A stretch of DNA of 64,000 bases from contig CM082578.2 in NCBI GenBank assembly GCA_040954595.2, positions 4,880,831 to 4,944,830 of the forward strand, read 5' to 3'. Each line of letters opens with the position of its first letter. The first letter of the stretch is position 1. The notes below the pieces were generated by a model that made no database searches, was not told the DNA's origin, and was given only the letters and a program-made list of their open reading frames with translations. This stretch comes from Balanoglossus misakiensis. Lineage: Eukaryota > Animalia > Hemichordata. Both the position numbers and the translations under genes were made by a program. Below are positions 22,001-28,000 of the stretch, in pieces.

Positions 22001-25000
22001 AACTACCCTGTTCAGTTCTTTCATGACGGAATGAAGTCAAATCGTCAATGCAAACATCTATTCATCTCTGAAAAGCAGTATAGGTACGGGTATAGGCCGC
22101 GTTAAGGGAAATACACATTTTGCTGCTTGGCCTAATTTTGCAGTTATTAATTCGTCATCATTCGGACAACTGCCATTTTAGACAATCGACGGGCGAGCGT
22201 CCAAATCATTCTGCTGAGCCAAGAGCTAAAACGTGTTCCTTTTTGTGATTCTACAGACAGGAAGTGTGAAGGTTGCGAGAACGGCGGGAAGTGCACCGAT
22301 CCATACGACGGTGAATGCGTCTGCCCGGAAGGTTACTACGGACTTCGGTGTGAACACGAGGGAGGTGAGTTTTGGTGCCGCGCATTTATCTCCATTTGGC
22401 CGTAGACATTAATACTCTGATGAAATAAGTAGTATAGGTTGGAGCCGTAGCACTCTCATTTGGGGAGGAGGAGCTGAGGAGGAGCTGAGGAGAGCTGAGG
22501 AGGCTGAGGAGGAGCTGAGGAGGAGGCTGAGGAGGGGCCGGAGGAGCTGAGGAGGGGAGCGAGGGAGAGGGAGGAGGAGCTGAGGAGGAGGAGCTGAGGA
22601 GGAGGCGGAGGAGCTGAGGAGGAGGAGGAGGAGCTGAGGAGGAGGAGGAGGAGCTGAGGAGGAGGAGGAGGAGGAGCTGAGGAGGAGGAGGAGGAGCTGA
22701 GGAGGAGGAGGAGGAGCTGAGGAGGAGGAGGAGGAGGAGCTGAGGAGGAGGAGGGGAGGAGGAGCTGAGGGAGGAGGAGGAGCTGAGGAGGAAGAGGAGG
22801 AGGAGCTGAGGAGGAGGAGGAGGAGGAAGCTGAGGAGGAGGAGGAGGAGGAGGAGGAGCTGAGGAGGAGGAGGAGCTGAGGAGGAGGAGGAGGAGCTGAG
22901 GAGGAGGAGGAGGAGGAGCTGAGGGAGGAGGAGGAGGAGGAGGAGGAGGAGCTGAGGAGGAGAGGAGCTGAGGAGGAGGAGGAGGAGCTGAGGAGGAGGA
23001 GGAGGAGGAGGAGGAGCTGAGGAGGAGGAGGAGGAGCTGAGGAGGAGGAGGAGCTGAGGAGGAGCTGAGGAGGATGAGGAGGAAGAGGAGGATGAGGAGG
23101 AGGAGGAGGAGGAGGAGGAGGAGGAGGAGCGGAGGAGGAGGAGGCGGAGGAGGAGGAGGAGGAGGAGGAGGAGGAGGAGGAGGAGGAGGAGGAGGAGGCG
23201 GAGGAGGAGGAGGCGGAGGAGGAGGAGGAGGAGGAGGAGGTGATGTTGGGAGGAGGCAGAGGAGGCAGTGGAGGTGATGTTGGGAGGAGGTGATGAGAGG
23301 CGAAGGAGGCCTATCACCCATGGCCGAGTTCGATTGTGACCCGAGTAGCGACCCGAGTAGCTGCCGCTGACGTCATCCCATTCTAGTTCGCATGCGCATA
23401 AGCGTAACCCGGGAGATTTCAAAAGAACGATACCAGCGTAGCAACCCATGTAAACAAATATGGCGACTGAGTTCGAAGATTTCTTGTTTTTGCGTACTTT
23501 TTTTGAGGATTTTGATGAATCTTTAGATTCTGCGGCAGTTTGGCAACTCCGAATAAATACTGCCATCATTGCCTCTCTGAGCTGTTTATTTTTGCGCCGA
23601 AAATACGTCCCGAAGATACAAAATTTTGCCGAAGATATCGTACCTCAGTATTCTTTGCAGGATTTTTGCATCCATTTCCGTATTTGCAAAGATATCTTCA
23701 CGTTTGTTCTGGGTCGCATCGCCCACAAACTGGCAATAGAACAATGCGGTGGCCGCCCTCAAGTGCCTCCAGAAAAACAATTATTGGTATGGATTTGGTA
23801 CATGGTAAACCAGGAATCCATCAGAGAAGTTGGTCACATTTTCAATCTCTCCAAATCCACAGTCCATTCAACAGTAAAGCGTGTCACAAAAGCTATCATT
23901 GCTGTGATGAAAGATGTAAGTACATTGTAAAGTACATTTTCTAGATTATCTTCATGGATTATTTTTGAATACAAATATATTTCAACATTTCAATAATATA
24001 CAGTTGGTGATGCATAATTTCAAGCTCTGTTTAATTATTGCTATCAAAGAACATATTAAAGGGGACAGTTAAAAATTATCATTTAGCATTTTCTTTTAGT
24101 ATTTATGGTTCTCTGTGTCAACATTTTTTTTTCTACTGCACTCTGTATAGCAAGCTGAAATGTCCAATATTATGTTTGTCATAATTGCAGGTATGTGTAA
24201 AAATTATTGTTGACTAATGACTTATCAATATTTGTAGGTTATCAGGTGGCCAACACAAGAGCGACAGAGGGAGATTTCACAGAGTTTTCAGCTTGATTGT
24301 GGTTTACCAGGTATAGTGGGCATTATTGATGGCACTCACATTAGACTGGCTGGTTGTATTGGTGGAGCTCAAGACTATATAAATAGGAAAGGTTATCCAT
24401 CCATGCAACTTCAGGTAAGAAAATTCATTTTTATAGAGAAAAATTTATATCTTCCATCATGACATGTGTCATTCTTGAATTTAAAAATAAAACCTGTTGA
24501 AATGTTGGTTAGTCTCTGGCATTGAGAATTTTATCAAGTTACATAAATGTAGGAGATTCTTGACAAAAAGTGTCCTTTTTTCAGGTCATTGTTGATGATA
24601 ATCTATTAATCACCAATGCATACACTGGATGGCCTGGTTGTACACACGATGCCCGTGTCCTTCGAAATTCTTCCCTGTACACAAGACTGGAGACTAATGA
24701 AGTAACTATGGGTCCTGGGAGATACATCATTGGTGATTCTGCATACCCTTTGAGAGAATGGCTTATTACTCCCTTCAGAGACAATGGATTTTTAACCATT
24801 CAGCAGCGCAGGTTCAATCGCGTCTTTTCATCCTGCCGTCAAAATGTTGAACGATCAATTGGGCATTTAAAGGGTCGTGTTAGGAGGCTCAGAGAATTGC
24901 CTATGCATAGTCCTGAGCCTCCTAACACGACCCTTTAAATGCCCAATTGATCGTTCAACATTTTGACGGCAGGATGAAAAGACGCGATTGAACCTGCGCT

Positions 25001-28000
25001 GCTGAATGGTTAAAAATCCATTGTCTCTGAAGGGAGTAATAAGCCATTCTCTCAAAGGGTATGCAGAATCACCAATGATGTATCTCCCAGGACCCATAGT
25101 TACTTCATTAGTCTCCAGTCTTGTGTACAGGGAAGAATTTCGAAGGACACGGGCATCGTGTGTACAAACCAGGCCATCCAGTGTATGCATTGGTGATTAA
25201 TAGATTATCATCAACAATGACCTGAAAAAAAGGACACTTTTTGTCAAGAATCTCCTACATTTATGTAACTTGATAAAATTCTCAATGCCAGAGACTAACC
25301 AACATTTCAACAGGTTTTATTTTTAAATTCAAGAATGACACATGTCATGATGGAAGATATAAATTTTTCTCTATAAAAATGAATTTTCTTACCTGAAGTT
25401 GCATGGATGGATAACCTTTCCTATTTATATAGTCTTGAGCTCCACCAATACAACCAGCCAGTCTAATGTGAGTGCCATCAATAATGCCCACTATACCTGG
25501 TAAACCACAATCAAGCTGAAACTCTGTGAAATCTCCCTCTGTCGCTCTTGTGTTGGCCACCTGATAACCTACAAATATTGATAAGTCATTAGTCAACAAT
25601 AATTTTTACACATACCTGCAATTATGACAAACATAATATTGGACATTTCAGCTTGCTATACAGAGTGCAGTAGAAAAAAATGTTGACACAGAGAACCATA
25701 AATACTAAAAGAAAATGCTAAATGATAATTTTTTAACTGTCCCCTTTAATATGTTCTTTGATAGCAATAATTAAACAGAGCTTGAAATTATGCATCACCA
25801 ACTGTATATTATTGAAATGTTGAAATATATTTGTATTCAAAAATAATCCATGAAGATAATCTAGAAAATGTACTTTACAATGTACTTACATCTTTCATCA
25901 CAGCAATGATAGCTTTTGTGACACGCTTTACTGTTGAATGGACTGTGGATTTGGAGAGATTGAAAATGTGACCAACTTCTCTGATGGATTCCTGGTTTAC
26001 CATGTACCAAATCCATACCAATAATTGTTTTTCTGGAGGCACTTGAGGGCGGCCACCGCATTGTTCTATTGCCAGTTTGTGGGCGATGCGACCCAGAACA
26101 AACGTGAAGATATCTTTGCAAATACGGAAATGGATGCAAAAATCCTGCAAAGAATACTGAGGTACGATATCTTCGGCAAAATTTTGTATCTTCGGGACGT
26201 ATTTTCGGCGCAAAAATAAACAGCTCAGAGAGGCAATGATGGCAGTATTTATTCGGAGTTGCCAAACTGCCGCAGAATCTAAAGATTCATCAAAATCCTC
26301 AAAAAAAGTACGCAAAAACAAGAAATCTTCGAACTCAGTCGCCATATTTGTTTACATGGGTTGCTACGCTGGTATCGTTCTTTTGAAATCTCCCGGGTTT
26401 TACGCTTATGCGCATGCGAACTAGAATGGGATGACGTCAGCGGCAGCTACTCGGGTCGCTACTCGGGTCACAATCGAACTCGGCCATGGGTGATAGGCCT
26501 CCTTCGCCTCTCATCACCTCCTCCCAACATCACCTCCACTGCCTCCTCTGCCTCCTCCCAACATCACCTCCTCCTCCTCCTCCTCCTCCCCCCTCCCCGC
26601 CTCCTCCTCCTCCCCTCCTCCTCCTCCTCCTCCTCCTCCTCCTCCTCCTCCGCCTCCTCCTCCTCCGCCTCCTCCTCCTCCTCCTCCTCCTCCTCCTCCT
26701 CCTCATCCTCCTCTTCCTCCTCATCCTCCTCAGCTCCTCCTCAGCTCCTCCTCCTCCTCAGCTCCTCCTCCTCCTCCTCAGCTCCTCCTCCTCCTCCTCC
26801 TCCTCCTCAGCTCCTCCTCCTCCTCCTCAGCTCCTCCTCCTCCTCAGCTCCTCCTCCTCCTCCTCCTCCTCCTCCTCAGCTCCTCCTCCTCCTCCTCCTC
26901 AGCTCCTCCTCCTCCTCAGCTCCTCCTCCTCCTCCTCCTCCTCCTCAGCTCCTCCTCCTCCTCCTCCTCAGCTCCTCCTCCTCCTCCTCAGCTCCTCCTC
27001 CTCCTCCTCAGCTCCTCCGCCTCCTCCTCAGCTCCTCCTCCTCAGCTCCTCCTCCGCCTCCTCCTCAGCTCCTCCGCCTCCTCCTCAGCTCCTCCTCCTC
27101 AGCTCCTCCTCAGCTCCTCCTCAGCTCCTCCTCAGCTCCTCCTCCCCAAATGAGAGTGCTACGGCTCCAACCTATACTACTGAAATATGCTGTTTTAGTC
27201 AGGTTTTCTCCATAGTTTACACGAACTTCAGTAAGACTCGAAGCTATAAGTCGACGACAAAATATGGAGTGTGTTGCAAATGGTATTTTATGCACCACTC
27301 CAATAATTTGAAAACTTTTGTTTCAAAAAAAACTTTAAGAAGCAACCACATAGGTTCGAGTGTGCAGCTTTTGCCTTCAGGAAAAAATGCCGCTATCACG
27401 ATTGGAGTTATCAGGAGATAAGGGCATGTTGATAACATGTGTCAAAGAAGTCTCATCATCATTGCTATTTTGTTTCGTTCAACGAAAATACAACACATAT
27501 TGTTTTCTACACGTGTTATTCACACGTGGTTATCTTCAAATACATGTAGGTCCAATCGTGTTTTCTGGATATTTAAGAGAATGTGAACGAAACAAACTTT
27601 TTTTCTACTACTTGTCGTCGAGTCGGCGTCGGTTAACGTTTGGAACGCCCTTGCTAATTCTGGCACACGGCTGGAACCACTCAACCGATGGATACTCCTC
27701 ACCCGAATCATAAATATTGCATAGCTAATACTTGGATCATGCAGTACCAATTATGAATAGCCACATTTCTATTTTGACCTTTCTCTCTCAGAACCTGATG
27801 ATTGCGGGGGTTGCCATAACGACGGCAAATGCCGAAGCGATGGTTATTGTGTTTGCCCAGATCCATTCTACGGACCCCATTGCGAATATTGTAAGTGATA
27901 CGTGTCACATTTTAAGCGAATTCTGTTGAGTTCCCTGCTTGGTTAATAGTTAATGCGCCCGATCCGCTCTTTCATCTTGCTCGAGAAATTTGATGTGCAT

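Follow-up and report, generated by a model that had tools for sequence, protein, structure and literature searches.

Mavericks, or Polintons, are believed to copy themselves by protein-primed replication of free linear DNA, an idea drawn mostly from their gene content and end motifs, and palindromic products are known from phi29 in vitro, from yeast hairpin plasmids and as the snap-back genomes of adeno-associated virus. We describe here a ~4.75-kb insert in a 64-kb stretch of the Balanoglossus misakiensis genome (contig CM082578.2, positions 4,880,831 to 4,944,830; this whole stretch is called the window, and all coordinates below refer to it) that lies within an intron of an EGF-repeat host gene and consists of a single whole-element inverted repeat. 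Our preferred explanation, held at about even confidence, is that the insert is a non-autonomous snap-back derivative of a Harbinger-carrying Maverick/Polinton end, which was copied by fold-back and integrated in trans. Vertebrate Mavericks most commonly have (AGT)2//(ACT)2 ends together with target site duplications (TSDs) of 6 bp, with terminal inverted repeats (TIRs) of 46–1,447 bp (PMC8097293), and phi29 produces subgenomic molecules from one genome end that have been linked to template switching (PMC4974454).

With Mavericks/Polintons (PMC8097293, PMC6431247), the insert shares (AGT)2//(ACT)2 ends, a TSD of 6 bp, ends that number in the tens per genome and a putative end region, which at 894 bp (22428–23321) would lie inside the reported TIR range. 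It differs from them in its length of 4.75 kb as against 12.7–24.6 kb, in that no core gene was found in the frames scanned, in being entirely one inverted repeat and in carrying a truncated Harbinger. As in the snap-back products of protein-primed replicons, one end would have been duplicated via template switching to give a short molecule with two origins, whereas here the product sits, with a TSD, in a germ-line chromosome of an animal and the polymerase is a presumed one. In maize Mu killer (PMC3440606), a transposase gene has its 5′ part inversely duplicated between two identical ends over ~4–5 kb, and read-through from a host gene enters a hairpin RNA. Our insert, too, places a transposase duplicated in inverted orientation within a host gene that is transcribed, but the ends and the transposase of Mu killer come from one element, whereas here Maverick-like ends enclose a Harbinger passenger. 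The long inverted arms, whose tandem arrays differ in length, recall Foldback/Galileo elements, which belong to the P superfamily (PMC3573991), whereas the ends and TSD of our insert fit Mavericks. In the portions of the literature covered by our search there was no description of palindromic Maverick derivatives, and one may exist in early Polinton papers, their supplements or Repbase. The present case contributes its parent sequence together with the turn, an empty site and a double-stranded RNA (dsRNA) signal.

The insertion is heterozygous and has a 6-bp TSD

Sequencing evidence was taken from the contigs of three runs (X1, X2 and X3), which derive from one sample in one study, are not independent individuals and are probably the source of the assembly. 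These contigs were compared with the window over two stretches without long repeats, 23300–24945 and 22120–22475. A first-pass annotation, made from the letters of the window, had described the insert as a whole-element palindrome with a 20-nt spacer, flanked by GAAATA repeats and interrupting a host gene that continues on both sides, and the arms, the spacer and both repeats are confirmed in the window sequence (Table 1). The empty allele that it had predicted was also found, in a 3,480-bp contig of X2 that tracks the window to 22416 and then enters the right-flank sequence with a single GAAATA. With 10 differences in 297 nt, this contig represents the other haplotype; the flank haplotypes differ by 3.4%, and X1 contains two of them at depths of 107 and 112, one being identical to the window. 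The filled left junction is present in an X1 contig with 0 differences over 22297–22455, 28 nt of which lie on the element side. The insertion is real and heterozygous, with a 6-bp TSD.

Beside its 6-bp reading of the duplication, the first-pass annotation had allowed for a 7-bp one, and we favor the 6-bp GAAATA over the 7-bp TGAAATA because contigs of the terminus family begin exactly at 22428 and because only the 6-bp reading makes the ends symmetric. The chance of a perfect 6-bp direct repeat at fixed ends is ~3e-4 and that of the Maverick end motif is ~6e-4. Among 878 motif pairs in the window, two have a 6-bp direct repeat, and matching ends are found in the 22428/27181 pair alone.

The exons on either side of the intron have GT/AG sites, and an X3 contig joins exon 22304–22364 directly to the exon at 27792; therefore, the host EGF-repeat gene is transcribed and its mRNA is spliced across the element. 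Exon-like frames resembling F5/8, CUB and EGF domains by eye extend over 1657–28275 on the forward strand.

Maverick-like ends belong to a multicopy family and enclose a Harbinger passenger

The outermost 43 nt of the two arms are identical and carry the (AGT)2//(ACT)2 form of the Maverick end motif, the alternative being (AG)3//(CT)3. The Polinton assignment of the ends and TSD in the first-pass annotation thus agrees with the published signature (PMC8097293), the 6-bp TSD being supported by the empty allele at one locus only. The terminus is multicopy, with contigs that start exactly at 22428, each at ~16–38 times the single-haplotype depth, and that break off at the GAG array. Two variants, one exact and one with two differences, are represented by contigs at depths of 1,792 and 2,025 in X1 (against 107/112 per haplotype) and 410 and 743 in X2 (against 19.8 per haplotype), from which we estimate ~35 ends (X1) or ~58 ends (X2), depth being only a rough guide. 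At least two variants of the terminus, similarly abundant and differing at 2–3 positions, are present over 22428–22473. No member of the Maverick gene set (pPolB, integrase, ATPase, protease and capsid) was found in 17 of the 37 element frames of at least 50 amino acids, which were picked from the left arm and centre for scanning, as had been stated at first pass. On this result and on its small size, we do not classify the element as an autonomous Maverick. We rejected a coding meaning for the long GAG/CTC frames, which are of low complexity and give only sub-cutoff Pfam matches. We also rejected identity with IS3EU or GingerRoot, other families with 6-bp TSDs that end in TA..TA or TG..CA (PMC10045372), since the element ends in AG..CT.

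The enclosed transposase is of the DDE_Tnp_4 type (PF13359, E 3e-21), which places this inner passenger, and not the insert as a whole, with PIF/Harbinger elements. Its three exons (~23460–23916, 24239–24414 and 24586–24916) retain the DDE motifs and are 75–89% identical to the closest protein, P0001 (putative nuclease HARBI1 of Ptychodera flava, as its source names it), whose last ~62 amino acids are absent; this relationship is a weak indication of an acorn worm as the host. In contrast to PIF/Harbinger elements, only the 5′ 1.6 kb is present, in mirrored form, the 3′ end and any second gene are missing along with the C terminus, and the 6-bp TSD was not made by Harbinger. Contigs of all three runs enter at 23321–23322 from unrelated flanks, and the free Harbinger family, at a depth of ~4–20 haplotype equivalents, begins there. 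Because the multicopy Harbinger begins at 23322 in other flanks, it is a passenger here, separately inserted 0.9 kb inside the terminus. The parent Harbinger contigs depart from the window after 24916 in all three runs, in agreement with the missing C terminus. PIF/Harbinger elements and their relatives (PHIS) make TSDs of 0–4 bp (PMC10045372); neither such a TSD nor Harbinger termini bounding the insert were found. Harbinger was rejected as the mobilizer on the grounds of its internal end at 23322 and of this TSD range, and the earlier doubt that the enclosed transposase had made the insertion was justified.

Of the 40 difference sites listed, beyond which there are 25 further rows, 8 set this Harbinger copy apart from every X1 and X2 contig that covers them. 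An X3 contig that spans the junction between the GAG array and Harbinger has the private letters of this copy together with at least 3 differences that are not of the editing type, which is a weak hint of a sister (donor) composite locus. In all three runs there are contigs that match just the first 37 nt of the Harbinger end (23322–23358) before diverging alike, pointing to a related second Harbinger or miniature inverted-repeat transposable element (MITE) family.

The turn has the predicted anatomy of fold-back self-priming

The inner unique parts of the arms align over 1,650 matching columns with 0 substitutions (95% bound 0.18%) and 6 indel events, each in a homopolymer run; two of the right-arm indels shift the frame of a transposase exon. 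The 196-bp difference in arm length is located in the GAG/CT array, in which irregular units number 11 of 30 on the left and 0 of 21 on the right, with the first unit set aside. The mirroring is recent and younger than this Harbinger copy, because the arms are <0.18% apart (95% bound) while the copy differs at the 8 listed sites given above and the flank haplotypes by 3.4%.

Because the parent matches the window through 24916, the turn junction is a 4-nt inverted match, between TCAG at 24889–24892 and CTGA at 24913–24916, and the parent continues past it, as would be the case for a snap-back product. When a DNA strand that ends at 24916 is folded, its minimum-energy structure (−3.4 kcal/mol) joins the 3′ CTGA to TCAG; a paired 3′ end is found for 100 of 1,555 end positions, 26 of them at this energy or better. 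On this predicted fold, the turn has the anatomy of fold-back self-priming, which fits an origin on a free replicon, in the chromosome or in the tube alike. Fold-back was already the interpretation of the first-pass annotation, which is now partly supported by a real heterozygous insertion, a multicopy terminus, a Harbinger passenger and the anatomy of the turn, the turn itself being seen in the window sequence only. That annotation had overlooked that the fold-back lies within a separately inserted Harbinger and that the arms bear signs of edited dsRNA.

Editing-type changes suggest a long RNA hairpin

X3 is not recorded as RNA and behaves like it: it contains a spliced contig and has depth neither on the terminus nor in most intron bins. 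A>G or T>C changes make up 23 of the 25 change places in X3, compared with 7 of 35 for X1 and 9 of 36 for X2 (Fisher p ~1e-7 or less, the sites being clustered and not independent). One X3 contig has 17 differences in 121 nt, of which all 10 listed are T>C, and another, which reaches into an intron, has 21 differences in 153 nt, of which all 3 listed are A>G. Clustered A>G and T>C changes are the expected outcome of ADAR activity on dsRNA, and these clusters on Harbinger suggest that the pre-mRNA hairpin of the arms is edited as dsRNA. Since the host gene is transcribed and its splicing spans the element, the pre-mRNA would contain a ~2.3-kb hairpin; RNA of the element likely forms such a long double-stranded structure.

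Proposed origin and alternatives

The snap-back origin can be laid out as a series of steps. A family of tens of ends, in which AGTAGT is followed by a GAG array, carries 0.9 kb inside one such end a multicopy Harbinger that starts at 23322. Synthesis from this end would have halted ~2.49 kb in, at 24916, where the new 3′ CTGA could pair with TCAG 20 nt upstream and prime the copying of its own strand, regenerating a second identical end and losing all sequence beyond 24916. The resulting duplex palindrome, with two origins and two integrase ends, would have been made by the protein-primed polymerase of a helper, whose integrase would then have inserted it into the host intron. There, the host transcript is spliced across the element, and the ~2.3-kb hairpin of the pre-mRNA would be edited as dsRNA.

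Several observations weigh against this origin. The scan of 17 of the 37 frames for Maverick genes returned only Harbinger domains, and searches with terminus patterns gave 0 matches in viral and metagenome contigs, which is uninformative for an animal element. The turn is in no contig of the three runs, all from one sample, and contigs drop low-copy junctions beside deep ones; the depth of the last bin is fully explained by the parent contigs alone, and the X2 parent contig runs unbroken through 24916, and therefore the palindrome is low-copy at most. The junction between the GAG array and Harbinger is in no X1 or X2 contig (23300–23321 is uncovered), a gap that proves nothing. The 28 nt on the element side of the left-junction contig fall below the 31-nt bridging rule, and its start is a loose 22-nt one. 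At 5 of the 6 homopolymer sites the run contigs do not agree with the right arm, which together with the noise of the left array makes read support look thin. The palindrome is known from a single locus with a single TSD. The editing signal comes mostly from two contigs, at depths of 5.6 and 2.2, and could stem from other inverted Harbinger copies, the contigs not being tied to this locus.

The rival that survives best, in our view unlikely, is that the palindrome formed in place. A longer integrated Maverick-type element with a Harbinger close to its left end would have broken or stalled at 24916 and folded back at the 4-nt match, after which the left arm was copied backwards and rejoined the chromosome via the homologous right end, keeping the original TSD. 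This route yields the same sequence and requires no excision of a composite donor, and it accords with the low copy number of the turn and with GAG arrays whose outer parts differ between the arms while the inner units agree. However, it requires two template switches, the array differences coincide with the irregular, error-like units of the left arm, and the X3 contig across the junction may point to a sister composite at another locus.

It seems less probable again that the insertion and its ends are real and the centre is a library or assembly chimera, in which a fold-back read of a longer element bridged the ends. Amplification chimeras can turn at short inverted matches, the turn is in no contig and the homopolymer errors are concentrated in the right arm, all of which would suit such an artifact. 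Yet a fold-back read would mirror the flank too, whereas each flank is unique and the two lie next to each other in the empty allele; a chimera ending inside the end region would need a coincidence, and nothing foreign is present in the loop. That editing-like clusters affect both strands implies that this Harbinger region is truly duplicated in inverted form in RNA, and the loss of a low-depth junction beside deep ones is ordinary in contigs.

We also consider it improbable that the ends belong to a non-Maverick cut-and-paste foldback family with long repetitive TIRs (Galileo/FB-like), the palindrome having arisen via template switching in gap repair: foldback elements typically have modular tandem arrays of unequal length in their arms (PMC3573991) and tens of ends came with no Maverick gene in the frames scanned, but exact (AGT)2//(ACT)2 ends with a 6-bp TSD are the Maverick signature, the ends of IS3EU and GingerRoot do not fit and PHIS TSDs are of 0–4 bp.

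If the snap-back origin is correct, the integrated palindrome, with its identical arms and mapped 4-nt turn, would be a relic of the free replication stage, two ends would be all that a helper needs to copy an element and integrate it, and one mobile element would have a route to convert the gene of another into long dsRNA. More speculatively, and by analogy with Mu killer and MuDR, Mavericks may spawn integrating snap-back defective genomes, this one just born, in which the Harbinger fragment has become a dsRNA-edited mobile hairpin cassette that could silence the Harbinger family; X3 still contains parent-type Harbinger contigs. Heterozygosity, the mapped turn and the mapped empty site make these readings directly testable.

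Features of the locus and other elements in the window

Table 1. Coordinates of the palindromic insert and the adjoining host exons.
Feature	Position	Strand	Length	Basis
Left arm	22428–24892		2,465 bp
Spacer/loop	24893–24912		20 nt
Right arm	24913–27181		2,269 bp
Host EGF-like exon upstream of the element-bearing intron	22257–22364	+		GT/AG sites; spliced to 27792 in X3
TSD GAAATA, left copy	22422–22427	+		Sequence; single copy in empty allele (X2)
Left terminus, begins (AGT)2; multicopy family end	22428–22461	+		Family contigs start precisely at 22428
Left purine-rich (GAG)n-CT tandem array, outer half noisy	22462–23239	+
Inner 82 bp of putative Maverick end region, preceding Harbinger	23240–23321	+		Sequence; one X3 contig bridges into Harbinger
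5′ part of HARBI1-like Harbinger	23322–24916	+
Turn point (TCAG 24889–24892, 20-nt loop 24893–24912, CTGA 24913–24916); predicted self-priming hairpin	24889–24916	+
Right arm unique part, mirror of 23240–24892; 0 substitutions, homopolymer indels	24913–26568	-
Right (GAG)n-CT array, ~200 bp shorter and more regular than left	26569–27147	-
Right terminus, ends (ACT)2, identical to left terminus	27148–27181	-
TSD GAAATA, right copy	27182–27187	+
Host EGF-like exon downstream of the intron	27792–27891	+		GT/AG sites

Several further elements and genes lie in the window. An element of ~400 bp at 21052–21448 has TAG...CTA ends, inverted repeats of ~70 bp and a flanking 9-bp direct repeat, features that fit a non-autonomous element of the AcademH type. 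Self-palindromic MITE-like repeats of ~340 bp, 78–88% alike, are found at 274–614, 33944–34309, 50791–51141 and 60434–60725, and two element copies that are ~96% identical (7624–9165 and 44606–46628) have A...T-rich ends and internal 239-bp tandem repeats in 3.8 and 5.8 units, respectively. On the reverse strand, 5056–5862 holds a frame that is pentraxin-like by eye. On the forward strand, a leucine-rich-repeat (LRR) frame followed by a caspase domain at 31929–33703 is likely one LRR-caspase immune gene, as judged from its predicted domains. An intronless 353-codon frame on the reverse strand at 58646–59704 resembles, by eye, a G protein-coupled receptor of the rhodopsin family.

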